This document shows positions 5,952 through 31,762 of a DNA stretch of 32,000 nucleotides, in pieces. The notes beneath the pieces were generated by a model. The model searched no databases, had not been told where the DNA came from, and saw only the letters and a list, made by a program, of their open reading frames with translations. A program made the position numbers and the translations under genes. Position 1 is the first letter of the stretch; every line of letters begins with the position of its first letter. The stretch comes from Kineococcus radiotolerans SRS30216 = ATCC BAA-149. Its GTDB lineage: Bacteria > Actinomycetota > Actinomycetes > Actinomycetales > Kineococcaceae. Location: the NCBI RefSeq assembly GCF_000017305.1, contig NC_009664.2:2820001-2852000 (forward strand), read 5' to 3'.

Positions 5952-5973
5952 TTTGTCCTGACAAAGCTTGACA
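5952..5973. promoter_or_regulatory. Perfect palindrome TTTGTC-CT-GACAAA (putative IolR operator) next to a TTGACA -35 box in the iolR/iolC divergent region
   Basis: TTTGTC at 5952-5957 and GACAAA at 5960-5965 are exact reverse complements and fit the GntR-type tnGTnnnACna consensus. TTGACA lies at 5968-5973. Confidence 0.45.
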
Positions 5974-6064
5974 GGCGGGTCTTCCCCGGAGGACGCTCGA
6001 CCCAGCCACCGCGCCGCTGCGGCCCGGGGCGGCACCGATGATCCGGACTGGGAGGGGACCTCGC

Positions 6065-7042
6065 GTGAGCACCACGGCCGCGCTGGACGTCGTGACCATG
6101 GGCAGGGTCGGCGTCGACCTCTACCCGCTGCAGGACGACGTGGGCCTCGAGGACGTCGAGACCTTCGGCAAGTACCTGGGGGGCAGTGCCACCAACGTCG
6201 CCGTCGCCGCCGCGCGGCACGGGCGCGCCACGGCCGTCGTCACCCGCACCGGCAACGACGCCTTCGGGAGGTTCGTCCACCGGGCGCTCGCCGGTTTCGG
6301 GGTCTCCGACCGGTTCGTCTCCGGCGTCGAGGGGCTCAACACCCCGCTGGCGTTCTGCGAGATCTACCCGCCGGACCACTTCCCGCTGCTGTTCTACCGC
6401 CAGCCCACCGCGCCGGACCTGCAGATCCGCGCCGAGGAGCTCGACCTCGACGCCATCCGCGACGCCGGGGTCTTCTGGACCACCGTCACCGGCCTCTCCG
6501 AGGAACCCAGCCGCGGCGCGCACCACGCGGCCTGGGCGGCCCGGGCGCGCAAGCCCCTCACGGTCCTCGACCTCGACTACCGGCCGATGTTCTGGGCCTC
6601 CCCGCAGGAGGCGACCGAGCAGGTGCGCCGCGCGCTGCCGCACGTCACCGTCGCCGTCGGCAACCGCGAGGAGTGCGAGGTCGCCGTCGGCGAGACCGAA
6701 CCCCGCCGGGCCGCCGAGGCCCTGCTGGCCGCCGGGGTGGAGGTCGCGATCGTCAAGCAGGGGCCCAAGGGCGTCCTGGGGGCGACGAGGAACCCCGACG
6801 GGGGCACCGCCTTCGTCGAGGTCCCGCCCACCCCCGTCGCCGTCGTCAACGGCCTCGGCGCCGGCGACGGCTTCGGCGGCGCGCTGTGCCACGGGCTGCT
6901 CGCCGGCTGGGACCTGGAACGGACCCTGCGCTTCGCCAACGCCGCCGGCGCCATCGTCGCCACCCGGCGCGAGTGCTCCACCGCCATGCCGTTCACCTCC
7001 GAGGTGGAGGCCCTGCTCGAGGAGGTCGCCGCCCGTGCCTGA
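6065..7042 (+). CDS. iolC: 5-dehydro-2-deoxygluconokinase (PfkB family)
   Basis: The N-terminus LDVVTMGRVGVDLYPLQ...GKYLGGSATNVAVAAARHG and the C-terminal GAGDGFGGAL PfkB motif are present. The GTG at 6065 follows GGGAGGGG. Codons between ATG 6038 and 6065 have poor GC3. Confidence 0.85.
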   Translation: MSTTAALDVVTMGRVGVDLYPLQDDVGLEDVETFGKYLGGSATNVAVAAARHGRATAVVTRTGNDAFGRFVHRALAGFGVSDRFVSGVEGLNTPLAFCEIYPPDHFPLLFYRQPTAPDLQIRAEELDLDAIRDAGVFWTTVTGLSEEPSRGAHHAAWAARARKPLTVLDLDYRPMFWASPQEATEQVRRALPHVTVAVGNREECEVAVGETEPRRAAEALLAAGVEVAIVKQGPKGVLGATRNPDGGTAFVEVPPTPVAVVNGLGAGDGFGGALCHGLLAGWDLERTLRFANAAGAIVATRRECSTAMPFTSEVEALLEEVAARA

Positions 7043-7937
7043 CGAGAACGGCTCCTCCACCGGTTTCGCGAAGGACTACGCCGAGGTCGCGGAGATCCGC
7101 GCCCGCCACCCCGAACGCATCCTCGAACGCTCCCGGGCCCGGCGCCGCCGCCCCCTGCTGGAGGCCGACGGCCGCCTCATGGTCGTCGCCGCCGACCACC
7201 CCGCCCGCGCCGCCAACGGCGTCGGGAAGGACGCCATGGCGATGGCCGACCGCACCGAACTGCTCGACCGGCTGCGGGTGGCGCTCGCCGTCCCCGGCGT
7301 CGACGGCCTGCTCGCCTCGGCCGACATCGTCGAGGACCTCACCCTCCTCGGGGCGCTGGAGGGCAAGGTCGTCTTCGGGTCGATGAACCGCGGCGGCCTC
7401 CAGGGCGCCACCTTCGAGCTCGACGACCGCTTCACCGGCTACGACGCGCAGGCCGTGCAGGACATGAACCTCGACGGCGGCAAGTTCCTCGCCCGCATCG
7501 CCCTCGACGACGCCGGCACCCTGCCGACGCTGACGGCCTGCGCCGACGCCATCAGCGAACTCGCCGCGCGCCGGCTCGTGGCGCTCATCGAACCGTTCTG
7601 GTCCAGCCACCGCGACGGCAAGGTCGTCCACGACCTGACCGCCGACGGGGTCGTGAAGTCCATCAACGTGGCGCAGGCGCTGGGCCGGACCACGGCCTAC
7701 ACCTGGCTGAAGATCCCCGTCGTCGAGGACATGGAACGCGTCATGGACGCCACGACGCTGCCGACGCTGCTGCTCGGGGGGGACCCGGCGACCTCGCCGG
7801 AGGAGACGTTCGCGACCTGGCGCAAGGCGCTGGCCCTGCCGTCGGTGCGCGGGCTGACCGTGGGGCGGACCCTGCTGTACCCCCCGGACGGCGACGTCGA
7901 GTCCGCGGTGAAGACCGCCGTCTCCCTGGTGCGCTGA
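7035..7937 (+). CDS. Class-I-aldolase-like (beta/alpha)8 protein of the Cgl0159 type, probable 5-dehydro-2-deoxyphosphogluconate aldolase (IolJ function)
   Basis: Last 300 aa of ORF 6186..7937. The GTG at 7035 overlaps the iolC stop by 8 nt. The position between iolC and iolB matches corynebacterial/actinobacterial iol clusters. Function is inferred from context. Confidence 0.65.
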   Translation: MPDENGSSTGFAKDYAEVAEIRARHPERILERSRARRRRPLLEADGRLMVVAADHPARAANGVGKDAMAMADRTELLDRLRVALAVPGVDGLLASADIVEDLTLLGALEGKVVFGSMNRGGLQGATFELDDRFTGYDAQAVQDMNLDGGKFLARIALDDAGTLPTLTACADAISELAARRLVALIEPFWSSHRDGKVVHDLTADGVVKSINVAQALGRTTAYTWLKIPVVEDMERVMDATTLPTLLLGGDPATSPEETFATWRKALALPSVRGLTVGRTLLYPPDGDVESAVKTAVSLVR

Positions 7938-7948
7938 GGAGCCCGACG

Positions 7949-8863
7949 ATGACCTCCGGAACCGACCCGAACCTCTTCCTCCCCGCCGGGTCCACCGCGG
8001 CCGACGGTTTCGACCTCGTCGTGACCCCGGAGTCGGCGGGCTGGGGCTTCTCCGGCCTGCGCACGCTGACGCTGGCCCCGGGGGCCTCCCGCACCTTCCC
8101 CACCGGCGAGGACGAACTGCTCGTCCTGCCGCTCTCCGGTGCCTGCTCGGTCACGGTCGCGGGCGAGACCCTCGACCTCGCCGGACGCACCGGCGTCTTC
8201 GACGGGGTCACCGACTTCGCCTACGTCGGCCGCGACAGCGAGCTGACGATCTCCAGTGCCGCAGGCGGCGTGTTCTCGTTCCCGGGCGCACGGGCGTCAC
8301 GCCGCCTGCCCTTCCGGTACGGCCCGGCCTCGGGGGTCCCGGTGGAACTCCGCGGGGCCGGGTCGTGCAGCCGGCAGGTCAACAACTTCGCCACCCCGGC
8401 GGCCTTCGAGACCGACAAGCTCATCGCCTGCGAGGTCGTCACCCCCGGCGGGAACTGGTCCTCCTACCCCCCGCACCGCCACGACCGCACCAGCGACGTG
8501 GAGAGCGAGCTCGAGGAGATCTACTACTACGAGTTCCGCGCGCTGGCGCCGCAGGGCGTCCCGACGGTTCCCGGGGGCGTGGGCCTGCAGCAGGTCTACG
8601 GCGACGCCGAACGCCCGATCCGGGTCCTGGAGGAGGTCGGCTCCGGCGACGTCGTGCTCATCCCGCACGGCTGGCACGGACCGTCGGTCGCCTCCCCGGC
8701 CTACGACATGTACTACCTGAACGTCATGGCCGGGCCCGAGGCGGAACGGGCCTGGAAGATCTGCGACGACCCCGCCCACGGCTGGGTGCGGTCGACCTGG
8801 GAGCAGCAGGCCGTCGACCCCCGCCTGCCCTTCTACTCCACCCCCGAGCCCGACGAGCACTGA
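7949..8863 (+). CDS. iolB: 5-deoxy-glucuronate isomerase
   Basis: 304 aa cupin-type IolB pattern (GWGFSGLRTLTL..., NWSSYPPHRHD, EEIYYYEF, GWHGP). GAGGAG lies upstream of the ATG. Confidence 0.85.
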   Translation: MTSGTDPNLFLPAGSTAADGFDLVVTPESAGWGFSGLRTLTLAPGASRTFPTGEDELLVLPLSGACSVTVAGETLDLAGRTGVFDGVTDFAYVGRDSELTISSAAGGVFSFPGARASRRLPFRYGPASGVPVELRGAGSCSRQVNNFATPAAFETDKLIACEVVTPGGNWSSYPPHRHDRTSDVESELEEIYYYEFRALAPQGVPTVPGGVGLQQVYGDAERPIRVLEEVGSGDVVLIPHGWHGPSVASPAYDMYYLNVMAGPEAERAWKICDDPAHGWVRSTWEQQAVDPRLPFYSTPEPDEH

Positions 8864-8875
8864 GAGACGATCGAG

Positions 8876-10807
8876 ATGAGCGCGGTACCCCCCAACCCGG
8901 CAGTGGTGACGGTGCGGTTGACGGTCTCGCAGGCCGTCGTGCGGTTCCTGCAGGCGCAGTTCAGCGAACGCGACGGCGTGCGCCGGCCGTTCTTCGGCGG
9001 CGTGTTCGGCATCTTCGGGCACGGCAACGTGGCCGGGATCGGCCAGGCCCTCCTCGAGGCCGAGGAGGGGGCGCTCGGCGACGACTGGGAACCCCCGGCC
9101 CACCTGCGCTACATGACGGGTCGCAACGAGCAGGCGATGGTCCACGCCGCCGTCGGCTACGCCCGGCAGCAGGACCGGTTGCAGACCCTCGCGGTCACCG
9201 CGTCGGTCGGGCCGGGATCGACGAACATGCTGACCGGCGCGGCCCTGGCCACGGTCAACCGCATCCCCGTGCTGCTGCTGCCCGCCGACGTGTTCGCGAC
9301 CCGCGTCGCCTCGCCGGTGCTGCAGGAGCTGGAACAGCCCTACGGCTACGACGTCTCCGTCAACGACGCGTTCCGGCCGCTGTCGAAGTTCTTCGACCGG
9401 GTGTGGCGCCCGGAGCAGCTGCCCTCCGCGCTGCTCGGGGCGATGCGGGTCCTCACCGACCCGGCCGAGACCGGTGCGGCGACGATCTGCCTGCCCGAGG
9501 ACCTGCAGGCCGAGGCGTGGGACTTCCCCGTCGAGCTGTTCCGCGAGCGGACCTGGCGCATCGCCCGGCCCGTCCCGGAGAAGGTCGCGATCGCCGAGGC
9601 GGCCGACCTCATCCGTTCCGCGAAGGCCCCGCTCGTCGTGGCCGGCGGCGGGGTCGTGTACTCGCAGGCCACCGAGGCGCTGCGGGCGTTCGTGGAGGCC
9701 ACCGGCATCCCCGTGGGCCAGTCCCAGGCCGGCAAGGGCGCGATCCGCTACGACCACCCCCTGTCGCTGGGGGCCGTCGGTTCCACCGGCACGACGGCGG
9801 CCAACGAGATCGCCGCGGAGGCCGACGTCGTCATCGGGATCGGCACGCGGTACTCCGACTTCACCACCGGCTCGCGGACGGCGTTCCAGAACCCGGACGT
9901 GCGGTTCGTGAACGTCAACGTGGCCTCCCTCGACGCGGTCAAGCACGCCGGGCTGCCCGTGCAGGCCGACGCCCGCGAGGCCCTGGAGGCGCTCACGGAG
10001 GCCCTGGAGGGTTTCTCCACCCCCGACGCCTACCGGGAGCGCGCCGCGCGCCTGAACCGCGAGTGGGACGCCGTGGTGGACCGGTTCTTCCACTCCGGGA
10101 TCGGGGAGGCGAAGGGCCTGCTGGCGCAGGCCGAGGTCATCGGCGCCGTCGACGAGGTGGCCGGGGACCGCGACGTCGTGGTGTGCGCCGCGGGGTCGCT
10201 GCCCGGGGACCTGCACGCCATGTGGCGCAGCCGCGACCCGAAGCAGTACCACGTCGAGTACGGGTACTCCTGCATGGGCTACGAGATCCCCGGCGGGATC
10301 GGGGTGGCGCTGGCCGCCCCGGACCGGGACGTGTTCATCACCGTCGGCGACGGTTCGTTCCTCATGATGCCGACGGAACTGGTGACGGCGGTCCAGGAGG
10401 GCGTGAAGGTCATCGTCGTCCTGCTCCAGAACCACGGTTTCGCCTCCATCGGCGCGCTGTCGGAGCAGCACGGTTCTCAGCGCTACGGGACGAGGTACCG
10501 CAAGCGGTCGGAGTCCGGGCGGCTGGAGGGGGAGAAGCTGCCCGTCGACCTCGCGGCGAACGTCGAGAGCCTGGGCATCCGGACGCTGCGCGCCGGCACC
10601 CGCAAGGAGCTCGTGGCGGCCCTGCAGGACGCCAAGGCCTCTAGGGAGTCGACCTGCGTGTACGTCGAGACCGACCTGTACTCCGAGGCCCCCGACGGCG
10701 GCGGCTGGTGGGACGTCCCGGTGTCGGAGGTGTCCCACCTGGAGTCCACCCGGGCCGCGCGGACCTGGTACGAGGGCGAGAAGCGGACCCAGCGCCCGCT
10801 GCTCTGA
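8876..10807 (+). CDS. iolD: 3D-(3,5/4)-trihydroxycyclohexane-1,2-dione acylhydrolase (ThDP-dependent)
   Basis: 643 aa with ThDP-enzyme architecture. The ThDP-binding motif is GDGSFLMM...N, and the N-terminal RLTVSQAVVRFLQAQ is typical of IolD. Confidence 0.9.
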   Translation: MSAVPPNPAVVTVRLTVSQAVVRFLQAQFSERDGVRRPFFGGVFGIFGHGNVAGIGQALLEAEEGALGDDWEPPAHLRYMTGRNEQAMVHAAVGYARQQDRLQTLAVTASVGPGSTNMLTGAALATVNRIPVLLLPADVFATRVASPVLQELEQPYGYDVSVNDAFRPLSKFFDRVWRPEQLPSALLGAMRVLTDPAETGAATICLPEDLQAEAWDFPVELFRERTWRIARPVPEKVAIAEAADLIRSAKAPLVVAGGGVVYSQATEALRAFVEATGIPVGQSQAGKGAIRYDHPLSLGAVGSTGTTAANEIAAEADVVIGIGTRYSDFTTGSRTAFQNPDVRFVNVNVASLDAVKHAGLPVQADAREALEALTEALEGFSTPDAYRERAARLNREWDAVVDRFFHSGIGEAKGLLAQAEVIGAVDEVAGDRDVVVCAAGSLPGDLHAMWRSRDPKQYHVEYGYSCMGYEIPGGIGVALAAPDRDVFITVGDGSFLMMPTELVTAVQEGVKVIVVLLQNHGFASIGALSEQHGSQRYGTRYRKRSESGRLEGEKLPVDLAANVESLGIRTLRAGTRKELVAALQDAKASRESTCVYVETDLYSEAPDGGGWWDVPVSEVSHLESTRAARTWYEGEKRTQRPLL

Positions 10808-10877
10808 CGGGCCGGTCCGCCGGGAAGCGGTTTCCGAGCGGGCCCGTCCGCACCGGTCCCCGCGGGGTCCGGCGCGC

Positions 10878-10901
10878 CCTCTCCGTGAGGTGCGGGAGAG
10901 G
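10878..10901 (+). terminator. Hairpin after iolD followed by the only A/T-rich stretch of the region (terminator candidate)
   Basis: CCTCTCC (10878-10884) pairs with GGAGAGG (10895-10901) across a 10-nt loop, followed by TAAGTATGTAA. Confidence 0.3.
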
Positions 10902-10913
10902 TAAGTATGTAAC

Positions 10914-10952
10914 GACAATCGCTTGACAGTGCGCGCTCCGGCGCGCCACAGT
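10914..10952 (+). promoter_or_regulatory. Candidate promoter/operator of the iolE-ABC-iolG-iolH operon
   Basis: GACAA-TCG-CTTGACAG (10914-10929) closely resembles GACAA-AG-CTTGACAG at 5960-5974. TTGACA (10923-10928), an 18-nt spacer, then CACAGT (10947-10952). Confidence 0.35.
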
Positions 10953-11010
10953 TCCCTCGTCGTCCTCCGCGTCCGGAGGACGGCGCACGACGACGTGGAG
11001 GACGTTCCCC

Positions 11011-11904
11011 ATGGGCATCACCATCGGCTCCGCCCCCGACTCCTGGGGCGTCTGGTTCGCCGACGACCCGCTGCAGACCCCGGCGTCCCGCTTCCTCGAC
11101 GAGGTGGCCGAGGCGGGGTACGAGTGGATCGAGCTCGGCCCCTACGGCTACCTGCCCACCGACGCCGCGGAACTCTCCGACGAGCTCGCGAAGCGCGACC
11201 TCAAGGTCTCGGCCGGCACCATCTTCGCCGCCCTGCACCGCCCCGACCACTACGACGAGGCCTGGGCCCAGGTCGAGCTCGTCGCGGACCTCACCCGGGC
11301 CGTGGGCGGCACCCACCTCGTGGTGATCCCCGGCCAGTGGCGCAGCGACAAGACCGGCGAGGCGCTGGAGCCCCGCGAGCTGGACGAGGCCGGCTGGCAG
11401 CGGCTGGCCTCGGGCATGGACCGCCTCGGCGCCGACGTGAAGGAGCGCTACGGCCTGCAGATGGCCTTCCACTCCCACGCCGACACCCACGTCGACACCC
11501 AGGACCAGATCGAGCGCTTCCTGGAGATGACCGACCCCGAGGTCGTGAAGCTGTGCCTGGACACCGGCCACGTCAGCTTCTCCGGGGGGGACAACCTGGA
11601 GATCATCCGCAGGCACCCCGACCGGATCGCCTACGCCCACCTCAAGCAGGTCGACCCGCAGGTGGTCGCCAAGGTCAAGGCCGAGGACCTCGGCTTCGGC
11701 GACGCGGTGAAGCTCGGCGCCATGGTCGAGCCCCCGCAGGGGGTACCGGACATGCCGCCGGTGCTGGCCGCCCTGGAAGATCTGGGGCGTGACATCTTCG
11801 CCATCGTCGAGCAGGACCTCTACCCGGTCGCCTTCGACGTCCCCCTGCCCATCGCCCGCCGGACCTGCTCCTACCTCCGCTCCTGCCGCCTCCCGCGGGC
11901 CTGA
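11011..11904 (+). CDS. iolE: Xylose-isomerase-like TIM-barrel protein, probable inosose (2-keto-myo-inositol) dehydratase
   Basis: 297 aa. YGLQMAFHSHADTHVDTQDQIERFLEMTDPEVVKLCLDTGHVSF and AIVEQDLYP resemble the IolE core as I recall it. GGAGGA lies 8 nt upstream of the ATG. Supported by iol context. Confidence 0.65.
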   Translation: MGITIGSAPDSWGVWFADDPLQTPASRFLDEVAEAGYEWIELGPYGYLPTDAAELSDELAKRDLKVSAGTIFAALHRPDHYDEAWAQVELVADLTRAVGGTHLVVIPGQWRSDKTGEALEPRELDEAGWQRLASGMDRLGADVKERYGLQMAFHSHADTHVDTQDQIERFLEMTDPEVVKLCLDTGHVSFSGGDNLEIIRRHPDRIAYAHLKQVDPQVVAKVKAEDLGFGDAVKLGAMVEPPQGVPDMPPVLAALEDLGRDIFAIVEQDLYPVAFDVPLPIARRTCSYLRSCRLPRA

Positions 11905-12040
11905 CCCCGCCGCGACCGGCCCCGCGGGGGCCGATCGCCCCCGCACCACCCGCACCGCCGCAGGACCGCACCACCCCGTTGAGGAACAGCGGGTTCGGCT
12001 CGACCGGGCGAGGAACGCCCGAGGAGAAGGGACCGGATCG

Positions 12041-13042
12041 ATGAGGATTCGCTCGCGCAGGACCACCGTCGCCGCGCTCGTGGCGGTCGCCGCCCTCACG
12101 GTGGGCGGGTGCAGCTCGTCCGGCGGCAAGGCCGAGGACACCGCCGACGGAGGTGCCGCCGCCGGTGTCGCCGACACCCCCCGGATGAAGATCGCCATGG
12201 TGACCCACGCGGCCCCCGGCGACACCTTCTGGGACATCGTCCGCTCCGGCGCCGAGGCCGCCGCGGCCAAGGACAACGTCGACCTCAACTTCCAGGGGGC
12301 CCCGGAGGCCGCGGACCAGGTCAACCTCGTCCAGAGCGCCATCGACTCGAAGGTGGACGGCATCGCCGTCACCTTGGCCAAGGCCGACGCGCTGGCCCCC
12401 AGCGTGCAGGCGGCCACCGCCGCGGGCATCCCCGTCGTCGCCTTCAACGGCGGCTTCGAGGAGTGGAAGACCGCCGGTGCCATGGGTTACTTCGGCCAGG
12501 ACGAGGAGCTGGCCGGTGTCGCCGCGGGTGAGCGGCTGAGCAGCGAGGGCGCCAAGAAGACCCTCTGCGTCATCCAGGAGCAGGGCCACGTCGGGCTGGA
12601 GGCCCGCTGCGCCGGGGTCGCCCAGGGCCTGTCCGGCGGCACCACCGAGAACCTCTACGTCACCGGGACCGACATGCCCTCGGTGCAGCAGACCATCACC
12701 TCCAAGCTGCAGCAGGACCCCGCCGTCGACCACGTCGTCACCCTCGGCGCGCCGTTCGCCCTCACCGCGGTCAAGGCCGTGGCCGACGCGGGCAGCAGCG
12801 CCGAGGTCGCCACCTTCGACACCAACAAGGAGCTCATGGGCTCCATCCAGAGCGGCGACGTGAAGTGGGCCATCGACCAGCAGCCCTACCTGCAGGGTTA
12901 CCTCGCGGTGGACTCGCTGTGGCTGTACAAGACCAACGGCAACACCATCGGCGGTGGCCAGGCCACGTTGACCGGCCCGGCGTTCATCGACTCCACCAAC
13001 GTGGACCGCGTCGCCGACTTCGCGGCCAACGGAACCCGGTGA
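12041..13042 (+). CDS. ABC transporter periplasmic sugar-binding lipoprotein (RbsB/CUT2-type)
   Basis: Signal peptide plus lipobox (AALVAVAALTVGGC), then a Peripla_BP pattern (KIAMVTHAAPGDTFWDIVRSGAEAAA...VDGIAVT...IPVVAFN). The ATG at 12041 follows GAGGAGAAGG. Confidence 0.85.
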   Translation: MRIRSRRTTVAALVAVAALTVGGCSSSGGKAEDTADGGAAAGVADTPRMKIAMVTHAAPGDTFWDIVRSGAEAAAAKDNVDLNFQGAPEAADQVNLVQSAIDSKVDGIAVTLAKADALAPSVQAATAAGIPVVAFNGGFEEWKTAGAMGYFGQDEELAGVAAGERLSSEGAKKTLCVIQEQGHVGLEARCAGVAQGLSGGTTENLYVTGTDMPSVQQTITSKLQQDPAVDHVVTLGAPFALTAVKAVADAGSSAEVATFDTNKELMGSIQSGDVKWAIDQQPYLQGYLAVDSLWLYKTNGNTIGGGQATLTGPAFIDSTNVDRVADFAANGTR

Positions 13043-13049
13043 CGCACCC

Positions 13050-14111
13050 GTGAGCACCTCCGTCAGCACGTCGAAGGTCCCGCCCGCGGTGCGGGCCAAG
13101 GACGACCGGGTCGCGACCCGCTCGCTGCTCTCGCGGCTGCTGTCCAGGCCCGAGATCGGCTCCCTCATCGGCGCGGTCGCCGTGTTCGTCCTCTTCTGCG
13201 TGGTGGCCCCCACCTTCCGCACCGCTCCCTCGCTGGCGACGGTCGCCTACTCCGCCTCCACGATCGGCATCATGGCCGTGGCGGTGGCCCTGCTGATGAT
13301 CGGCGGGGAGTTCGACCTCTCCGCCGGCGTGGTCGTCACCACGACGGCGCTGGCCGCCTCCACGTTCGCCTACCAGCTGGGACTGAACCTCTGGGTCGGG
13401 GTCCTCGCAGCGCTGGTGCTGGCCCTGGGGATCGGCGCCTTCAACGGCTGGCTGCTCATGCGGACGGGGCTGCCGAGCTTCCTCATCACCCTCGGCACGT
13501 TCTTCATGCTCCAGGGCCTCAACCTCGGCGTCACCAAGCTGCTCACCGGCGGGGTGTCCTCGGACTCGGTGGCCGACATGGACGGCTTCGCCTCCGCCCA
13601 GGCGGTGTTCGCCTCCACGATCGACGTCGGCGGGATCGGCATCAAGATCACCGTCCTGTGGTGGATCCTCTTCGTGGCCATCGCCACCTGGACGCTGCTG
13701 CGCACCCGCGTCGGGAACTGGATCTTCGCCGTCGGCGGCGACGACAAGGCCGCCCGCGCGGTCGGGGTCCCGGTGCGGAGGACGAAGATCGGGCTGTTCA
13801 TGACCGTCGGCTTCGCCGGCTGGTTCGTGGGCATGCACCAGCTCTTCAGCTTCGACTCCATCCAGTCCGGCGGCGGCGTCGGCCAGGAGTTCATCTACAT
13901 CATCGCCGCCGTCGTCGGGGGGTGCCTGCTCACCGGCGGGTACGGCTCGGCGGTCGGCTCGGCCATCGGGGCGCTCATCTTCGGCATGACCAGCCTGGGC
14001 ATCGTCTACGCCGGCTGGGACGCGAACTGGTTCAAGCTGTTCCTCGGCGTGATGCTCCTGCTGGCCACGATCGTCAACCTGGTCGTCAAGAACCAGGCCG
14101 CGAAGAGGTGA
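13050..14111 (+). CDS. Sugar ABC transporter permease (RbsC/AraH-type)
   Basis: 353 aa with about 9-10 hydrophobic segments. The typical motif IFAVGGDDKAARAVGVPVRRTKIGLF is present. Confidence 0.85.
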   Translation: MSTSVSTSKVPPAVRAKDDRVATRSLLSRLLSRPEIGSLIGAVAVFVLFCVVAPTFRTAPSLATVAYSASTIGIMAVAVALLMIGGEFDLSAGVVVTTTALAASTFAYQLGLNLWVGVLAALVLALGIGAFNGWLLMRTGLPSFLITLGTFFMLQGLNLGVTKLLTGGVSSDSVADMDGFASAQAVFASTIDVGGIGIKITVLWWILFVAIATWTLLRTRVGNWIFAVGGDDKAARAVGVPVRRTKIGLFMTVGFAGWFVGMHQLFSFDSIQSGGGVGQEFIYIIAAVVGGCLLTGGYGSAVGSAIGALIFGMTSLGIVYAGWDANWFKLFLGVMLLLATIVNLVVKNQAAKR

Positions 14112-14118
14112 GGACCCG

Positions 14119-14967
<849 letters not shown>

Positions 14968-14991
14968 CCCCTCCAGCAGCACACCCGACGA

Positions 14992-15013
14992 CCCCCGGCG
15001 GCCCCGCCGGGGG
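14992..15013 (+). other. Intercistronic GC hairpin between the ABC ATPase gene and iolG
   Basis: CCCCCGGCG (14992-15000), loop GCCC, CGCCGGGGG (15005-15013): a perfect 9-bp stem with no U-tract. It could be an attenuator or an mRNA-stability element. Confidence 0.3.
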
Positions 15014-15037
15014 AGACGACACCCGAGGACGGACCGC

Positions 15038-16084
15038 ATGAGCACGGCGACGCAGACGACCGACCGCACCGCGCGTCAGGGGTACGACCGCGATGTGCGC
15101 GTCGCCGTGCTCGGCGTCGGCATGATGGGCCAGGACCACGCCCGCCGCCTCGCCACCCTGACCAAGGGCGCCCAGCTCGTCGCGGTCAGCGACGTGGACG
15201 CCGCCCGCACCGACGCGGTCGCCGCCGAGCTCGGCGTCCGCGCCGTGCACGACCCGGCCGCGGCCATCGCCGACCCCGAGGTGGACGCCGTCGTCATCGC
15301 GACGCCCGGGTTCACCCACGAGGGTCTGGTGCTGGAGGCCATCGCCGCGGGCAAGCCCACCCTGTGCGAGAAACCCCTCACCACCTCCCCGGAGACCGCC
15401 CGCGCGGTCGTCGAGGCCGAGCGCGCCCTGGGCCGCCCCCTCGTGCAGGTGGGGTTCATGCGCCGCTTCGACGCCGAGTACGAGCAGCTGCGCGCGCTCG
15501 TCGCCTCGCGCGAGCTGGGCCGGCCGCTGTTCCTGCACTGCGTGCACCGCAACGCCACGACCCCGCCGAACTTCAACTCCGAGATGCTCATCCTCGACTC
15601 CGTCGTCCACGAGGTCGACATCGCCCGCTTCCTGCTGGGCGAGGAGATCACCGCGATCACGGTGCTCACCCCGGGCCGCACCGCCCACGCCCCCGAGGGC
15701 CTGCAGGACCCGCAGTTCGTGCTCATGGAGACCGCGAGCGGCACCCTCGTCGACGTCGAGATCTTCGTGAACACCACCTTCGGCTACGAGGTCCGCACCG
15801 AGCTGGTCGCCGAGCGCGGCAGCGCGATGACCGGCCTGGGCGTCGGGCTGGTCCAGCACTCCGCCGCCGGGTGGGGAGGGCGGATCGCGGCCGACTTCAA
15901 GCAGCGCTTCGGCGCCGCCTACGACACCGAGTTCCAGCGCTGGGTGGACGCCGTCCGCAGCGGCGCCGGCGTCGACGGGCCCGGGGTGTGGGACGGGTAC
16001 GCCGCGGCCGCCGTCTGCGCCGCCGGCGTGCAGTCCCTGCGCACCGGCCGCCGCGTCGAGGTCGACCTCGGCGCCCGGTCCTGA
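15038..16084 (+). CDS. iolG: Gfo/Idh/MocA-family oxidoreductase, probable myo-inositol 2-dehydrogenase
   Basis: Rossmann N-terminus [17 protein letters not shown], the CEKPL motif and a GFMRRFD segment are present. Supported by iol context. Confidence 0.8.
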
Positions 16085-16096
16085 GGAGGCCCGCGG

Positions 16097-16951
16097 ATGC
16101 AGATCGCCCTGGACCCCTACATGTTCCGCGACGTCCCGCTGCTGCAGCTGCCGGGAGTGGTTGCCGACCTCGGCTACGAGTGGATCGAGCTCTCCCCGCG
16201 CGAGGACTTCATCCCCTTCTTCCGCCACCCCCGCGTCGACCTGGCCGGGGTGCGGGCCTTCCGCAAGGCGCTGGAGGCCGCCGGGGTGGGCGTGTGCTCC
16301 ACCCAGTTCGTGCAGCGCTGGTCCGGTCCCGGTGAGGACGAGCGCCGGCAGGCGGTGCGCAACGTCAAGCGCATCGTCGAGGTGAGCACGGAGCTCGGCG
16401 TCCCCGTCCTGCAGTCGGAGTTCAACGGCCGCCCCGAGCTGCCGGAGGCCAGCGAGGCCCGCTTCTTCGACTCCTTCGAGGAGCTCGCCCCGGTCTTCGA
16501 GTCCGCCGGCGTCGAGCTGCGCCTGGAACCGCACCCCGACGACTTCGTCGAGGACGGTTTCCGCGCCGTCGACCTCGTGCGCGGCCTCGACCGGCCCTGG
16601 CTGGGGTTCGTCTACTGCACCCCGCACACCTTCCACCAGGGCGGGGACGGACCGGGGATCGTGCGCTACGCCGGCGACCTGGTCCGCCACGTGCACGTGG
16701 CGGACTCCTTCGACCCCCGCGGTTCCTCCGGCCTGCGCTACATCGTCAACCCCCCCGGTTCCACCGCCCGCGTCCACCAGCACCTCGACGTCGGCGAGGG
16801 CGAGGTCGACGTCGACGGCATCTTCGCGGCCCTGGGCGAGGTCGGCTTCGACGGCGCGGTGTGCTCCAGCGTGTTCGCCTGGGAGGAGCGGCGCGAGGAG
16901 TCCAGCCGCTTCATGCGCGCGAGGATCCAGGAACTCGTCGACCGCTGGTGA
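16097..16951 (+). CDS. iolH: Sugar phosphate isomerase/epimerase (TIM barrel), IolH-like
   Basis: The segments ALDPYMFRD...LGYEWIELSPREDFIPFFRHPRVD, GLRYIVNPPG and HQHLDVGEGEVD match the IolH pattern as I recall it. GAGGAGG lies upstream of the ATG. Confidence 0.7.
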   Translation: MQIALDPYMFRDVPLLQLPGVVADLGYEWIELSPREDFIPFFRHPRVDLAGVRAFRKALEAAGVGVCSTQFVQRWSGPGEDERRQAVRNVKRIVEVSTELGVPVLQSEFNGRPELPEASEARFFDSFEELAPVFESAGVELRLEPHPDDFVEDGFRAVDLVRGLDRPWLGFVYCTPHTFHQGGDGPGIVRYAGDLVRHVHVADSFDPRGSSGLRYIVNPPGSTARVHQHLDVGEGEVDVDGIFAALGEVGFDGAVCSSVFAWEERREESSRFMRARIQELVDRW

Positions 16952-17696
16952 CCCGGGGCTCGCGGGTCAGCCACCGGCCGAACGTCAGCTCCCCCCGGTC
17001 GGCGTCGGGATCGGGCAGCAGCGTCCCGTCGCGCAGCGCGCGGCCGAACCCGCCGGGCAGGGGCAGGGCGAGGACGAGGCCGCGGTGCCCGGTGGCCCGG
17101 GCCCAGGAACGGGCCGCGTCGGCCATCGCCAGCACCTCCGGCCCGGCCAGGTCGCGCACCCGGCCCGCGGGCCCCCGCTCGGCCAGGGCCACCAGCCGCT
17201 GCGCGACCTCGCGCGCCGCGACGGGCTGCGACCTCATCACCGGGACCAGGTGCACCGGCCCGAACGCGGCCCGGCCGTGCAGCTGCCCGGCGAACTCGTG
17301 GAACTGGGTGGTGCGCAGCAGCGTCCACGGGACCCGCCCGCCGGCGACCTGCTCCTCCTGGGCGGCCTTGCCCGCGTAGTAGCCGTGCGGGGCCCGGTCG
17401 ACGCCGACGATGGACAGCGCGAGGTGGTGACCGACCCCGGCGTCCTCCTCGGCCGCGAGGAGGTTCCCCGTCACGGCGGTGAAGAACTCCCGCGCCACCC
17501 GCGCTGAGCCCGTCCCCACCGACGTGACGTCCACGACGGCGTCCACCCCGGCGAGGGCCCCGCCCAGCCCGGTCCCGGCGACGAGGTCGACCCCGGTGGA
17601 GCGGGCGAGGACGACGGCCTCGTGGCCGTGCTCGCGGGCGACGTCCACGACGTGCTGCCCGACGGTGCCGGTTCCCCCGGCGATCGCGATGCGCAT
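16911..17696 (-). CDS. NAD(P)H-binding NmrA/atypical-SDR (epimerase-like) protein
   Basis: The N-terminal MRIAIAGGTGTVGQHVV is a Rossmann GxxGxxG motif. 261 aa. It is divergent from the ECF41 sigma gene, and its 3' end overlaps iolH by 41 nt (convergent). Confidence 0.8.
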   Translation of the reverse strand: MRIAIAGGTGTVGQHVVDVAREHGHEAVVLARSTGVDLVAGTGLGGALAGVDAVVDVTSVGTGSARVAREFFTAVTGNLLAAEEDAGVGHHLALSIVGVDRAPHGYYAGKAAQEEQVAGGRVPWTLLRTTQFHEFAGQLHGRAAFGPVHLVPVMRSQPVAAREVAQRLVALAERGPAGRVRDLAGPEVLAMADAARSWARATGHRGLVLALPLPGGFGRALRDGTLLPDPDADRGELTFGRWLTREPRVTSGRRVPGSSRA

Positions 17697-17731: not shown

Positions 17732-18688
17732 ATGGGCTCCGGCGGCGAGGAGGGGGAGGTGCGGGTGGACACCGGGGTCGACGACCTGCCCGGAGGGGCC
17801 GGGGAGCGCCGGCGGCTGCTGTCGCTGGGCTACCGGATGCTCGGGACGCTGGCCGAGGCCGAGGACGCCGTGCAGGAGACCTACCTCCGCTGGTACCGGC
17901 TGAGCGCCGCCGAGCGCGCGGCCGTCGCGAACCCGCCGGCGTGGCTGACCCGCGTCGCGAGCCGGGTCTGCCTCGACGTCCTCGCCTCCGCCCGCCACCG
18001 CCGGGAGCGGTACGCGGGGGAGTGGCTGCCCGAGCCCGTCCCCTCGGACCTGTTCTCCGGCACCGTCTCGGGCCGCCCGGCCGTCGACCCGTTCGAGCGG
18101 GTCAGCCTCGACGAGTCGGTCAGCACCGCCGTCCTCGTCGTCATGGAGTCGATGACCCCGGCCGAGCGGGTCGCCCTCGTCCTGCACGACGTGTTCGGGC
18201 TGCCCTTCGCCGAGATCGCCGACGTCGTCGGCCGCGCCCCCGCGGCGGTGCGCCAGCTCGCCTCCTCCTCCGCCCGCCGCCGCGTCCGCGAGCACGGCGC
18301 CGTCGGCGGCGACCGCCGCGAGCACGACGCCGTGGTCCGCGCCTTCGCCCGCGCGGCCGGCACCGGCGACGTCGAGGCGCTGGCGGCGCTGCTCGACCCC
18401 TCCGTCGTCCTGCGCTCCGACGGCGGCGGGGTGGTGAGCGCCGCCCGCCGCCCCGTGCGGGGGCGCGACGACGTGGCGCGGTTCCTCCTCGGCGTCGTCC
18501 GCAAGAACCCCGCCCTGCGGGTGCGGGAGGTGCGCACCGGCGACGGTCTGGCCCACTGCTTCACCGACGGGGAGGCGGCGCGCGCCGTGCTGAACCTGCG
18601 GGTCCGGGACGGGCACGTCCAGGACGTCTGGATCCAGCTGAACCCCGGGAAGCTCAGCGCCTGGGCGCCGAGCGCTCCCACGCGCTGA
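17732..18688 (+). CDS. sigJ: ECF sigma factor, group ECF41 (SigJ-like) with SnoaL-like C-terminal extension
   Basis: Region 2 is LGYRMLGTLAEAEDAVQETYLRW and region 4 is ERVALVLHDVFGLPFAEIADVVGRAPAAVRQL. The ECF41 hallmarks WLPEP, DGGG and NPGKL (consensus NPDKL) are present. An alternative start, GTG 17759, has a better SD (AGGAGG 5 nt upstream). Confidence 0.85.
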   Translation: MGSGGEEGEVRVDTGVDDLPGGAGERRRLLSLGYRMLGTLAEAEDAVQETYLRWYRLSAAERAAVANPPAWLTRVASRVCLDVLASARHRRERYAGEWLPEPVPSDLFSGTVSGRPAVDPFERVSLDESVSTAVLVVMESMTPAERVALVLHDVFGLPFAEIADVVGRAPAAVRQLASSSARRRVREHGAVGGDRREHDAVVRAFARAAGTGDVEALAALLDPSVVLRSDGGGVVSAARRPVRGRDDVARFLLGVVRKNPALRVREVRTGDGLAHCFTDGEAARAVLNLRVRDGHVQDVWIQLNPGKLSAWAPSAPTR

Positions 18689-19868
18689 AGGAGCGCAGCG
18701 ACCCCGAGCCCGGGCGGCGCAGCCAGGGCCAGGGGTGGCGGGCGACGACGTCGAGGCGGGCCGCGCGGCGGGCGAAACCGGGGACGGGGGCGTGGGTGAC
18801 GGCGAGGCGGCGCCCGGCGAGCTCCGCGACGGGATCGCCGAGGCGGACCTCGCAGCCGAGCTCGGCGAGGGTCTCGGCGAGGAACACCAGGCGCTTGCCG
18901 GACAGCCGCAGCCGGGCCAGCAGCGGCTCGTCGAACACGAACACCGCGGGGACGCCGGGGTGGGCGGCGAGCGCGGGGTCGGTGTCGGCGAGGGACTCCG
19001 CGGTGAGCCACACCGCGTCGGGCTCGCCGGTGACCTCGGGGGTGCGGGGGCCGGCGTCGGTGGGTCCGCCGGCGAGGCCCTCGGGGGGCTCCACGCGGGG
19101 ACCGGCCTCCGTCTCCGGCCAGTCCTGGACCGGGCAGGCCCGCCGCAGCGCGCACGTGCCGCACAGGCCCGGGGCGCGCTTCTCGACCTGCCACCGGCTG
19201 AAGCCGTAGACCTTCCCCGTCCCGGTGCCCACGGCCCACTGCCAGCCGAGGCGGTTCGCGGCGGGGGAGCCGTCGAGGAGGTGGCGGTACATCTCCCGCG
19301 CGCCCTCGCGCCAGTCCGCCCCGGCCCGCACGGAGTACTGCGAGGCCAGCCACATCCGGGTCTGGTTGACCAGCCAGCCCTCCTCGTGCAGCTCCGCGGT
19401 GGTGGTGGCGACGCAGGCCATGTCCTGCGGCCACGGTTCGCGCTCCCACGGCTGCGCGGGCACGGGGGCGGCGAAGCGCAGCGGGCGGGCCGTCGCGGGG
19501 CCGAGGCGGGCGTAGAGGTGGCGGGCGTACTCCTGCCACAGCAGCTCGTCGCGGAACTTCGCCCGGTCGCGGGCGGGGGCGTCCCCCGCCGCGGCCCACA
19601 CCGTCGGCAGCGGGAGCAGCCCGTGGCGCACGTAGGGCGAGAGCCGGGTCGCGCCGCGGCGCTCGGGCGGCCAGACCTCGCTGCGCCGGGCGGCGTAGCC
19701 GGTGAGGTCCAGCGCGGCGAGGGCGGCGTCGGCGGCGGCCTGCCCGCCGCGCACGGGCGAGGCCGGCACGGGTTCCCCCGCCGGCTCGCAGGTCAGGTGG
19801 CCGAGGTGGGTGGCCACCCAGGCGCGCACGGCGTCGCGCTCGGCGGGCGGGGAGGGCAGGCGGGGCAC
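18654..19868 (-). CDS. Photolyase/cryptochrome-family protein with atypical domain order (FAD-binding domain, Cys cluster, then alpha/beta-like domain)
   Basis: The 3' 404 codons of ORF 18654..20288. Photolyase FAD-domain motifs are TRLSPYVRHGLL, FRDELLWQEYARH, WLVNQTRMWLASQ and GWQWAVGTG. The start is set at GTG 19868 because GC3 collapses between 19868 and 19943, and the glycine riboswitch lies further upstream on the other strand. Confidence 0.7.
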   Translation of the reverse strand: MPRLPSPPAERDAVRAWVATHLGHLTCEPAGEPVPASPVRGGQAAADAALAALDLTGYAARRSEVWPPERRGATRLSPYVRHGLLPLPTVWAAAGDAPARDRAKFRDELLWQEYARHLYARLGPATARPLRFAAPVPAQPWEREPWPQDMACVATTTAELHEEGWLVNQTRMWLASQYSVRAGADWREGAREMYRHLLDGSPAANRLGWQWAVGTGTGKVYGFSRWQVEKRAPGLCGTCALRRACPVQDWPETEAGPRVEPPEGLAGGPTDAGPRTPEVTGEPDAVWLTAESLADTDPALAAHPGVPAVFVFDEPLLARLRLSGKRLVFLAETLAELGCEVRLGDPVAELAGRRLAVTHAPVPGFARRAARLDVVARHPWPWLRRPGSGSLRSFSAWERSAPRR

Positions 19869-19977
19869 CCCGTCATCGTCACCCGGGGGTGCGGGGACGG
19901 CACCCGCAGCGCCCGCTGGTCCCCGGGGTCGGTCGTGTGCCACGCTGACGGCGAGGACAACTGAACACACGGCCGCT

Positions 19978-20166
19978 TCCCCCCGGCGGGAGAGCCCCAC
20001 CGGCCCGCCGGTGGGCACCGAAGGAGCAACCACCCCGGAACCTCTCAGGTCCACGTACCGCCACGGGCAGGCCGCTCTGGAAAGCAGGACCCCACGGTCC
20101 TCACCGACGGGGAAAGCCTCGCTGCGCGGGGTGAAGCTCTCAGGTCCCGCGACAGAGGGGGTCCAG
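19978..20166 (+). promoter_or_regulatory. Tandem (two-aptamer) glycine riboswitch
   Basis: Aptamer 1: GGGAGAG...GCACCGAAGGAGCAAC...CTCTCAGG. Aptamer 2: CTCTGGAAAG...CACCGACGGGGAAAGC...GCTCTCAGGTCCCGCGACAGAG. It lies immediately 5' of gcvT, the classical context. Boundaries are approximate (about +/-10 nt). Confidence 0.85.
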
Positions 20167-20205
20167 CACGTGGCCGCACCCCGCGGCCGCGACGAGAGGA
20201 GCCCC

Positions 20206-21345
20206 GTGACCACCCCGGCCACCACCCCCGCGCCCCCCGCGAGCACCCCCCTGGCCGACGCCCACGCCGCGCTCGGTGCCTCCTTCACCGACTTCGCCGG
20301 CTGGCAGATGCCGCTGCGCTACGCCTCCGACCTCGCCGAGCACCACGCCGTCCGCCGCGCGGCCGGGATCTTCGACCTCTCCCACATGGGGGAGATCCGC
20401 GTCAGCGGCCCGCAGGCCGGGGCCGCCCTCGACGCCGCCCTCGCCGGGCGCCCCTCGGCGATGGCCATCGGCCGCGCCGCCTACGGGCTGCTCGTCGACC
20501 ACGAGGGCGGGATCGTCGACGACCTCGTCACCTACCGCCTCGGGGAGCAGGAGTTCCTCGTCGTCGCCAACGCCGCCAACGTCGAGCCCGTCGTCGTCGC
20601 CCTCGCCGACCGCGCCCGGCCCTTCGACGCCCACGTCGCCGACGAGACCGCCCGCTGGGCGCTCGTCGCGGTGCAGGGCCCGGCCTCCGCCGCGATCGTC
20701 GGCCCGCTCGTCGACGCCGACCTCACCGCCCTCGGCTACTACCGCTGCGCGCCCGCCACCCTCACGACCGGACCCGGCGCCCCCGGCGTCGAGGTCCTCC
20801 TCGCCCGCACCGGCTACACCGGCGAGGACGGCTTCGAGGTCTTCGTCCCCGTCGACGACGCCGTCGCCGCGTGGGACGCCCTGCTGGCCGCCACGCGCGA
20901 GCACGGCGGCGTCCCCGCCGGCCTCGCCTGCCGCGACACCCTGCGCCTGGAGGCGGGGATGCCCCTCTACGGGCACGAGCTGACCACCGCCACCAGCCCC
21001 TTCGCCGCGGGCCTGGGACGGGTCGTCAAGCTCGACAAGGACCCCGGTCCCGTCGGGCTCGAGGCGCTCCAGCGCCTGGCCGCGACCCCGCCCGCCCGCG
21101 TCCTCGTCGGCCTGCGCGGCACCGGGCGCCGCGCCCCGCGCGCCGGCTACCCCGTCGTCGCCGGCGGTTCCCCCGTGGGGGAGGTCACCAGCGGGGCCCT
21201 CTCGCCCACCCTGGGGTACCCCGTCGCGATGGCCTACGTCGACGCCGCGCTCTCGGCACCGGGGACGGCCCTGGCCGTCGACGTCCGCGGCACCGAGCTG
21301 CCCGTCGAGGTCGTCGCGCTGCCCTTCTACCGCCGGGAGCGCTGA
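20206..21345 (+). CDS. gcvT: Glycine cleavage system aminomethyltransferase (T protein)
   Basis: The GTG at 20206 follows GAGAGGA. The segments GASFTDFAGWQMPLRY, AGIFDLSHMGEI, ARTGYTGEDGFE and RDTLRLEAGMPLYGHEL are canonical GcvT. Confidence 0.9.
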   Translation: MTTPATTPAPPASTPLADAHAALGASFTDFAGWQMPLRYASDLAEHHAVRRAAGIFDLSHMGEIRVSGPQAGAALDAALAGRPSAMAIGRAAYGLLVDHEGGIVDDLVTYRLGEQEFLVVANAANVEPVVVALADRARPFDAHVADETARWALVAVQGPASAAIVGPLVDADLTALGYYRCAPATLTTGPGAPGVEVLLARTGYTGEDGFEVFVPVDDAVAAWDALLAATREHGGVPAGLACRDTLRLEAGMPLYGHELTTATSPFAAGLGRVVKLDKDPGPVGLEALQRLAATPPARVLVGLRGTGRRAPRAGYPVVAGGSPVGEVTSGALSPTLGYPVAMAYVDAALSAPGTALAVDVRGTELPVEVVALPFYRRER

Positions 21346-21348: not shown

Positions 21349-22744
<1,396 letters not shown>

Positions 22745-22764
<20 letters not shown>

Positions 22765-31731: not shown

Positions 31732-31762
31732 GTGCCGGGCCGGGTGAAACCGGCACGACGAG

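Follow-up and report, generated by a model that had tools for sequence, protein, structure and literature searches.

The question raised by this locus is whether a photolyase homologue in which the FAD-binding domain stands first and an alpha/beta-like segment last represents a new protein architecture, and which function can be assigned to it. The gene is located on the reverse strand (18654..19868) of the window, i.e., the whole 32-kb stretch of Kineococcus radiotolerans DNA analyzed here. The initial annotation had considered its reversed domain order to be unlike that of the characterized family members. This did not hold, as proteins with such an architecture have already been characterized under the names NewPHL (PMC7736829) and SPL, the latter including RfSPL of the subgroup Ac (PMC8476157). 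The reversed-order class, together with its four-cysteine actinobacterial subgroup, was published and characterized at the biochemical level in 2020-2021, and the gene is a routine orthologue. We consider it highly probable that it encodes an actinobacterial SPL/NewPHL member of the four-cysteine "Ac" subgroup within the cryptochrome/photolyase superfamily, to be explained as an FAD/[4Fe-4S] CPD photolyase.

Based on the open reading frame and its translation, the gene is complete and encodes 404 aa, beginning with GTG and ending with TGA at 18654-18656. Its third-position GC content (GC3) amounts to 98%, whereas the two alternative frames on the same strand reach 79% and 61%. A longer form of the open reading frame extends to 20288; since the homologues measure 395-410 aa and span 99-100% of the 404-aa form, position 19868 is the correct start. 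Full-length relatives are encoded by the genomes of at least 591 species, complete chromosomes included, and the same architecture of 395-430 aa is shared by thousands of database proteins. The family is very widely distributed among soil and aquatic Actinomycetota, with orthologues mostly bearing the annotation "FAD-binding domain-containing protein" or "deoxyribodipyrimidine photolyase". That the reversed order merely reflects an artefact of assembly or gene calling, a check already called for by the initial annotation, is a practically negligible explanation: no point in its favor was found, whereas the unbroken, GC3-rich reading frame and the database-wide as well as genome-wide recurrence of the architecture stand against it. 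The locus is therefore genuine and an assembly artefact was ruled out. A search for further photolyase or UV-repair genes across the 32-kb window returned none.

The FAD-domain motifs and the cysteines read by eye from the sequence (C152 and C236-x2-C239-x5-C245) were all recovered in the translation of 18654-19868 (reverse strand). In a Pfam scan of the domain order, FAD_binding_7 (PF03441) matched residues ~104-216 of the 404-aa protein with E=2e-12, while neither PF00875 nor PF04244 matched at the N-terminus at E<=10, in agreement with the claim that no alpha/beta domain precedes the FAD domain. Only ~37 residues are found there. This lead segment (residues 1-37, 19758..19868, reverse strand) stands where the alpha/beta domain is missing from the N-terminus and is predicted by AF2 with a pLDDT of 90-97, including a conserved helix at residues 11-25; among 55 homologues V18, H21, L22, and L25 are invariant and W17 is nearly so. 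It is followed by the all-alpha FAD-binding catalytic domain (residues ~38-232, 19173..19757, reverse strand), as delimited by PF03441, phmmer against the PDB, Foldseek, and conservation. The phmmer matches comprised class I CPD photolyase structures (E. coli Phr 1DNP, Synechococcus 1TEZ/1OWL, and Thermus 1IQR), aligned on their residues ~200-400 with E ~1e-13 and 24-29% identity, and the best NCBIfam partial matches were exclusively CPD photolyase models. A Foldseek search of the full-length model against the PDB retrieved classical photolyase FAD domains only (TMq ~0.4), with no SPL/NewPHL structure among the matches. By these comparisons, the catalytic domain lies nearest to class I CPD photolyases.

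This assignment extends to the active site. Twelve CPD-type substrate- and FAD-contacting residues (E108, W111, N168, R171, M172, W186, D199, A204, N205, G208, W209, and W211) correspond, in the same order, to E. coli E274, W277, N341, R344, M345, W359, D372, A377, N378, G381, W382, and W384. All of them are invariant or nearly invariant in close homologues and are kept in diverse members as well. Concerning the tryptophan triad, the SPL/NewPHL class is described as retaining only the two FAD-proximal members (W382 and W359 in E. coli numbering), not W306. Of the retained pair, W209 (E. coli W382) is invariant and W186 (E. coli W359) nearly so. In addition, W141 aligns with E. coli W306 and is the majority residue among close homologues, in which W146 is invariant; judged from this alignment, the subgroup may therefore carry a third tryptophan.

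The cysteine set consists of the distal Cys152 (19413..19415, reverse strand), corresponding to RfSPL Cys155, and the loop C236-x2-C239-x5-C245 (19134..19163, reverse strand), whose three proximal cysteines correspond to RfSPL Cys239/242/248; all four are candidate Fe-S ligands. The one-plus-three arrangement, which had been likened to the cluster of FeS-BCP proteins, is indeed present and all four cysteines are invariant in the 55 homologues. When 37 diverse relatives whose active site is intact were compared, 28 possessed all four, five possessed none, and four had one or two, with C236/C239/C245 mostly being retained or lost jointly with C152. In the AF2 model the loop 236-245 reaches a pLDDT of 62-65, flanked by confident segments. 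The resulting pattern, C-x83-C-x2-C-x5-C, is the same as in RfSPL with positions offset by 3, and Cys155/239/242/248 represent the published Fe-S ligand set of that protein (PMC8476157).

The NewPHL class was defined by its inverted domain order (Emmerich 2020, PMC7736829), and the "short photolyase-like" proteins (SPL; Xu 2021, PMC8476157) are the same class. Within it, the subgroup "Ac" (Actinobacteria) is distinguished by four conserved cysteines and represented by the 406-aa RfSPL of Rhodococcus fascians (PMC8476157). Four Rhodococcus loci of our comparison set (L040, L041, L044, and L048) encode 406-aa proteins with cysteines at 155/239/242/248, identical to the published RfSPL descriptors, the match to RfSPL being drawn from length and cysteine positions in these genomes. 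Over residues 1-400, the L040 protein and the window protein are 61% identical; within the Z-domain the value is 64%. RfSPL contains FAD and an Fe-S cluster, as demonstrated by an Fe:S:FAD ratio of ~3.5:4:1, absorbance at 410 nm, and an EPR signal (PMC8476157). It repairs CPDs, as seen on oligo(dT)16, but not 6-4 products; its activity is weak, cofactor occupancy is low, and the cluster is either [4Fe-4S] or [3Fe-4S] (PMC8476157). Its role in vivo is minor, and knockout of Rfspl caused no significant photoreactivation defect (PMC8476157), so that its principal function in the cell may lie elsewhere. NewPHL proteins bind FAD, repair CPDs in single-stranded DNA only, and use the Z-domain to seal the FAD site; this strand specificity was established only with DsNewPHL and MmNewPHL (PMC7736829), which belong to the cysteine-less subgroup A.

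C-terminal to the cysteine loop follows a Pro/Gly/Glu-rich inter-domain segment (residues 246-284, 19017..19133, reverse strand) with conserved P246, P251, G273, and P274. Its pLDDT of 82-90 in AF2 means that it is predicted to be an ordered stretch and not a floppy linker. The Z-domain itself (residues 285-404, 18657..19016, reverse strand) is delimited by AF2, Foldseek, and profiles. The structure prediction proposed in the initial annotation yielded five beta strands alternating with helices for the C-terminal ~120 aa, at high confidence (pLDDT 90-97 for the secondary structure elements). With a pLDDT of 85 and a pTM of 0.87, the full-length AF2 model implies a defined packing of the two domains. 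Within the Z-domain, W287 is invariant, as are P363 and G364; the next residue is F365 (the window reads GFA, against a consensus of PVPGF), and the tail FSAW is conserved. The P363-G364-F365 stretch corresponds to the "GFF" motif of NewPHL, whose Z-domain is described as ~150 aa long with a conserved tryptophan and a GFF-type motif (PMC7736829).

The origin of this domain is the point at which our analysis reaches beyond the published descriptions. Xu et al. (PMC8476157) described SPLs as lacking an alpha/beta domain and left the C-terminal part unmodelled, calling it an "extension", and Emmerich et al. (PMC7736829) merely hinted at a similarity to the antenna domain. The likeness of the C-terminal ~120 aa to the alpha/beta antenna domain, originally noted by eye, was supported by the predicted fold, by photolyase matches in Foldseek and in a profile search of the PDB, and by sub-threshold PF00875 matches of related sequences; the C-terminal 148 aa of the window protein alone matched no Pfam or NCBIfam family. 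The homology becomes visible only via diverse family members and a profile, and on this basis the Z-domain seems remotely homologous to the N-terminal antenna domain of classical photolyases. An unlikely reading, albeit one with an appreciable chance of being right, is that the C-terminal domain is an unrelated module resembling Rossmann or USP folds, or else a "sealing" extension of ancestral origin, and that no domain permutation took place. It would account for the fact that every PF00875 match remains under the Pfam gathering score (at most ~22 bits compared with 26.6), but PF00875 was the sole family matched repeatedly, by 8 out of 27 diverse Z-domains with a best E of 1.8e-5 and a colinear alignment covering model positions 2-153. 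A Z-domain profile searched against the PDB returned 12 matches (best E=0.0015), all of them located in the N-terminal region of photolyases or cryptochromes. Foldseek is cited on both sides: the E-value of 6e-3 is modest and generic Rossmann and USP folds follow closely behind, yet class II photolyases lead in the PDB as well as in BFVD (probability 0.85-0.99), photolyases occupying the top three to four places in these two independent libraries. By hhalign, the Z-domain profile gave only a 9-column match with the single E. coli Phr sequence. Against a 22-sequence enterobacterial N-domain profile it aligned colinearly over 105 columns with E=0.015 and a probability of just 2.9%, which favors the unrelated-module reading; this N-domain profile was a poor one, the homologue search having yielded enterobacterial fragments only. 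The published evidence is likewise divided, with the secondary-structure order having been judged non-Rossmann and, conversely, the GREMLIN contact map having been found "strikingly similar" to the antenna domain by Emmerich et al. (PMC7736829).

The apparent homology between Z-domain and antenna domain is a modest addition to a published class; it favors an origin by domain swap over the scenario of a "single-domain ancestor of all photolyases" proposed for SPLs. It is improbable that the Z-domain is, beyond this, truly a relocated antenna-binding domain, so that the protein of the FO/F420-producing Kineococcus might bind an antenna and constitute a permuted photolyase with FAD, [4Fe-4S] cluster, and antenna. 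If true, SPL/NewPHL proteins would be two-domain photolyases with swapped domains and not ancestors with a single domain, which would undercut the model of SPL as the ancestor of all photolyases.

What was seen here comprises the architecture, the conserved residues, an orthologous relationship with RfSPL-type proteins, and a predicted fold; by analogy we infer that the Kineococcus protein behaves like RfSPL, DsNewPHL, and MmNewPHL in terms of FAD, Fe-S cluster, CPD repair, and single-stranded DNA. The N-terminal all-alpha domain would bind FAD, to be photoreduced to FADH-, and FADH- would split cyclobutane pyrimidine dimers via light-driven electron transfer, as in class I CPD photolyases, the substrate probably being single-stranded or locally unwound DNA. 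C152, C236, C239, and C245 would ligate a [4Fe-4S] cluster, which probably stabilizes the catalytic domain at its C-terminal end and may aid DNA binding or charge transfer. The Z-domain, as a diverged and relocated copy of an antenna-type alpha/beta domain, is proposed to pack on the catalytic domain and to seal the FAD pocket. Taken by analogy with its relatives, the protein is most likely an FAD/[4Fe-4S] CPD photolyase that plays a minor part in repair and probably has single-stranded DNA as its substrate.

Two other functions were weighed against this assignment. It is very improbable that we are dealing with an FeS-BCP/CryPro protein (cf. PhrB and CryB) that has been truncated or rearranged and acts as a (6-4) photolyase. 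The arrangement of its cysteines does resemble PhrB Cys350/438/441/454 (PMC8476157), and the FeS-BCP structures 5kcm and 7ykn gave the most aligned columns and the highest TMq (0.44) in Foldseek. In the sequence search of the PDB, however, PhrB (4DJA) is absent at E<=10 while class I CPD photolyases score ~1e-13; the best NCBIfam models are CPD-specific as well, and neither a PF04244 match nor any alpha/beta domain at the N-terminus is present. Conservation extends to E108, N168, and M172, which are of the CPD type, only 5 instead of 12 residues separate the third from the fourth cysteine, and in vitro RfSPL acted on CPDs but left 6-4 photoproducts unrepaired, no loss of absorbance at 325 nm being observed (PMC8476157). 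Judged by its sequence, the window protein is not a member of FeS-BCP/CryPro. Quite improbable, too, is a role mainly as a bacterial cryptochrome that senses light or redox state, with the Z-domain or the Fe-S cluster signaling to a partner, possibly the overlapping ECF41 sigma factor. The weak repair by RfSPL and the knockout almost without phenotype speak for such a sensor (PMC8476157), Xu et al. raised a cryptochrome-like role of the C-terminal extension (PMC8476157), and in the window the gene does overlap a sigma-factor gene. Yet the whole CPD-repair active site is strongly conserved, in vitro repair activity has been demonstrated for three family members, and the genomic neighborhood gives no support to a partnership.

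The ECF41-type sigma gene (17732-18688, forward strand) converges on the photolyase gene, and the 35-nt overlap reported previously (18654..18688) is real; it forms an inverted repeat with 15-nt arms, at whose outer ends the two stop codons lie. As is typical, the sigma gene is paired with a divergent gene of its own, which encodes an NAD(P)H-binding protein (16911-17696). On the other side, the glycine riboswitch noted near the 5' end proved to be a tandem riboswitch (19977-20161, forward strand), 108 nt from the start codon of the photolyase gene. Across 80 related loci, tblastn of five window neighbors and all-against-all clustering of flanking open reading frames revealed only the photolyase gene and shadow ORFs as shared, hence no conserved gene neighbor. 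The adjacency to ECF41 gene and riboswitch is not kept even at the 91%-identical orthologue of Kineococcus terrestris, beside which the sigma gene is absent. As a consequence of this lack of conservation, the two neighbors are considered incidental and without functional message, and a functional connection of the photolyase gene with the ECF41 sigma factor, the glycine riboswitch, or gcvT was rejected.

In comparison with known systems, RfSPL is the closest counterpart: with 406 versus 404 aa, it is alike in domain order, four-cysteine pattern, and CPD/FAD residues, although the Rhodococcus protein is biochemically characterized and that of Kineococcus is known here from sequence. What the RfSPL paper termed a C-terminal "extension" is, in the window protein, predicted to form an alpha/beta domain with five strands and a relationship to PF00875. 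The relatives present in at least 591 species genomes could yield more stable proteins to address cluster type and physiological role. DsNewPHL and MmNewPHL have the same CPD active site and likewise do without the classical N-terminal antenna domain, but as subgroup A proteins they have no conserved cysteines and carry FAD only, in contrast to the four-cysteine Fe-S signature seen here. In the FeS-BCP/CryPro proteins PhrB and CryB, the catalytic domain has the same overall fold as in the window protein and likewise bears one distal and three proximal cysteines at the C-terminal end, which in FeS-BCPs ligate a [4Fe-4S] cluster; these proteins differ in normal domain order, DMRL antenna, (6-4) specificity, and a spacing of 12 residues, as in PhrB, rather than 5 between the third and fourth cysteine. 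Class I CPD photolyases, finally, are the nearest solved relatives of the catalytic domain and have the same FAD- and CPD-binding residues, but, unlike the window protein, they place the alpha/beta antenna domain first, followed by a long inter-domain linker, contain no Fe-S cluster, and repair double-stranded DNA.

Judged by its relatives, the real photolyase gene is the 404-aa form, read on the minus strand from a GTG start at 19868 to 18654. The open reading frame itself is readable from 20288; the GTG start was chosen because the closest database proteins measure 395-410 aa and cover 99-100% of this form. In a database protein search, the closest relatives included a JGI metagenome protein (97% identical) and a protein of Kineococcus terrestris (91% identical), and third-position GC amounts to 98% in the photolyase frame, the strand's two remaining frames having 79% and 61%. 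All motifs and cysteine positions (C152, C236, C239, and C245) listed in the initial annotation were found in the translation, which additionally contains the non-conserved C27 and C339. Its description of a FAD domain without a preceding alpha/beta domain was likewise borne out. FAD_binding_7 (PF03441, E=2e-12) is the sole Pfam domain, with no match to DNA_photolyase (PF00875) or PF04244 anywhere in the protein at E<=10, and the best solved relatives by sequence, the class I CPD photolyases 1DNP, 1TEZ, 1OWL, and 1IQR (E about 1e-13), align only with their residues about 200-400, i.e., their FAD domain. In NCBIfam, only CPD photolyase models were matched, in part and far below threshold, through their C-terminal halves; the last 148 residues of the protein gave no match.

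More than 4,500 database proteins match the window protein, the best 120 of them all being full-length (about 400 aa) and originating from Kineococcus, Quadrisphaera, Motilibacter, Angustibacter, Frankiales, and others. Scanning a single genome for each species located relatives in at least 591 genomes, including Rhodococcus, Nocardioides, Geodermatophilus, Microlunatus, Patulibacter, and Solirubrobacteraceae; with this many relatives, the reversed domain order is not an assembly artefact. Alignment to E. coli photolyase equates E108, W111, N168, R171, M172, and W186 with Ec E274, W277, N341, R344, M345, and W359, and D199, A204, N205, G208, W209, and W211 with Ec D372, A377, N378, G381, W382, and W384. 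All 12 of these substrate/FAD-site counterparts are invariant or nearly so in 55 homologues and are also kept in diverse members. Conservation of the four cysteines, proposed initially as a check, proved complete in the 55-sequence alignment. Among active-site-intact representatives of 50%-identity clusters, all four are present in 28, none in 5, and a partial set in 4, a mostly all-or-none pattern as expected for a joint ligand set.

The photolyase gene converges on an ECF41-type sigma factor gene (17732-18688, plus strand; Sigma70_r2, r4_2, and a C-terminal SnoaL_2 extension), and the 35-nt overlap described for the two genes is real. This overlap (18654-18688) forms an inverted repeat whose 15-nt arms are 87% complementary and flank a 5-nt loop, the outermost triplets being the stop codons of both genes and the mirrored C-terminal peptides reading SAWERSAPRR-stop and SAWAPSAPTR-stop; it may serve as a shared bidirectional terminator hairpin. 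The usual partner of ECF41 sigma factors is an oxidoreductase or epimerase, which we take the divergent NAD(P)H-binding (NAD_binding_10) protein gene (16911-17696, minus strand) to be; for this reason, the sigma gene probably belongs with that gene and not with the photolyase. On the other side, a tandem glycine riboswitch with two aptamers (19977-20070 and 20072-20161, plus strand) sits upstream of both gcvT (about 20200-21345) and a gene for L-serine dehydratase (21349-22764). In none of 80 related loci, the 91%-identical K. terrestris orthologue included, was the sigma gene or the riboswitch/gcvT side found beside the photolyase gene, nor did these loci reveal any other conserved neighbour. 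The photolyase gene is thus a stand-alone unit, its adjacency to sigma gene and riboswitch carrying no functional information. The 32-kb window was found to contain no further photolyase or UV-repair gene. It also hosts a carbohydrate or inositol-catabolism-like cluster (5972-16951, plus strand) that includes a PfkB kinase and a TPP-dependent enzyme along with two TIM-barrel proteins resembling xylose isomerase, a Gfo/Idh/MocA oxidoreductase, and the binding protein, permease, and ATPase of a sugar ABC transporter, as well as three tRNA genes (31659-32000, minus strand), of which the last is truncated by the edge of the window.

The reversed order, initially noted as opposite to that of characterised family members, is already published. 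The NewPHL class is defined by its "inverted topology", in which a catalytic FAD domain is placed N-terminally and is followed by a C-terminal "Z-domain" of roughly 150 aa bearing a conserved Trp plus a GFF motif (Emmerich et al. 2020, PMC7736829), and was independently described as SPL ("short photolyase-like"; Xu et al. 2021, PMC8476157). The anatomy was hence correctly read, yet it is known as a kind, and the window gene is a routine orthologue. Regarding the nature of the C-terminal part, Xu et al. left the "C-terminal extension" unmodelled and stated SPLs to be without alpha/beta domain (PMC8476157), while Emmerich et al. considered the Z-domain fold unknown and non-Rossmann, a figure legend describing its contact map as "strikingly similar" to the antenna domain (PMC7736829).

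The AlphaFold2 model of the full-length window protein (pLDDT 85, pTM 0.87) places five strands alternating with helices at residues 285-384 (pLDDT 90-97), and a model of the Z-domain only showed the same topology. In the Cys loop (221-250), pLDDT falls to 62-65, as expected of a loop needing its cofactor. For the Z-domain model, the top Foldseek matches in the PDB were class II CPD photolyases (7VJ3, with E=6.6e-3, prob 0.99, and TMq 0.53; 7VJ4; 2XRY) and those in BFVD were photolyases of poxviruses and baculoviruses (prob 0.85-0.96), with generic Rossmann and USP folds behind them. A diverse 27-sequence Z-domain profile matched 12 of all PDB sequences (best E=0.0015), each a photolyase or cryptochrome aligned in its N-terminal region. 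PF00875 was matched by 8 of the 27 Z-domains (best E=1.8e-5, all below the Pfam gathering score), colinearly along positions 2-153 of the 164-position model; no other family recurred. A run of hhalign against an enterobacterial N-domain profile gave a colinear, weak alignment. The likeness to the antenna domain, first noticed by eye, thereby gained support from structure and profile searches, and sequence and models together make it likely that the Z-domain is a remote homologue of the classical antenna domain; such a swap would concern entire domains and would not be internal to any of them. The C-terminal tail (18657-18700, residues about 391-404; pLDDT below 50) carries a conserved R-S-F-S-A-W, or R-F-S-R-Y-W in distant members, resembling by eye the F-T-P-F-(K/W) that ends the classical N-terminal domain (YKVFTPFKNA, E. 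coli-type alignment), which is consistent with a permuted domain. This evidence goes slightly past both papers, with small residual value; signs of a permuted antenna domain in the "extension" touch on the proposal, made in print, of SPLs as the single-domain ancestors from which the entire family arose.

Concerning function, the window protein is most likely a FAD-dependent CPD photolyase of the SPL/NewPHL class, each functional detail being held somewhat less firmly than the class assignment itself. C152, C236, C239, and C245 are candidate ligands of a [4Fe-4S] cluster, which may serve a structural purpose or DNA charge transfer, and the relocated alpha/beta domain would seal the flavin pocket, as covariation indicates for the Z-domain packed on the NewPHL catalytic domain (PMC7736829). 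The substrate would probably be single-stranded or unwound DNA and the role probably a minor back-up to classical photolyases; two alphaproteobacterial NewPHL members bind FAD and repair CPDs only in single-stranded DNA (PMC7736829). In the alignment, W141 falls on E. coli W306, which is the photoreduction triad's distal Trp, and W146 does not vary among close homologues (both codons within 19431-19448). Published descriptions have SPL/NewPHL keeping two of the three triad Trp; by sequence, the actinobacterial subgroup may possess a longer electron-transfer chain.

The initially suggested likeness to the FeS-BCP/CryPro class (Agrobacterium PhrB, Rhodobacter CryB) holds for the cysteine arrangement, which about one third of SPLs, making up subgroups C and Ac, share with PhrB (PMC8476157), but not for the spacing, with 5 residues between third and fourth Cys compared with 12 in PhrB. 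Membership in that class was rejected, given the missing PF04244 match, no PhrB sequence match at E<=10, and CPD-type active-site residues. SPL/NewPHL is the assignment we hold with high confidence. Leaving the Trp triad aside, all sequence-testable defining features of its actinobacterial four-Cys subgroup Ac (subgroup C being mostly cyanobacterial; PMC8476157) are present, including the Z-domain hallmarks W287 (invariant) and P363-G364-F365. Proteins of four Rhodococcus loci (L040, L041, L044, and L048; 406 aa, Cys only at 155, 239, 242, and 248) exactly fit the published descriptors of the representative Rhodococcus fascians RfSPL (406 residues; Cys155, Cys239, Cys242, and Cys248), which contains FAD, iron, and acid-labile sulfide (Fe:S:FAD about 3.5:4:1), shows an Fe-S EPR signal, and repairs CPDs, not 6-4 photoproducts (PMC8476157). 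Between the L040 protein and the window protein, identity is 61% across residues 1-400 and 64% within the Z-domain, and the RfSPL cysteine pattern equals that of the window protein with an offset of three residues.
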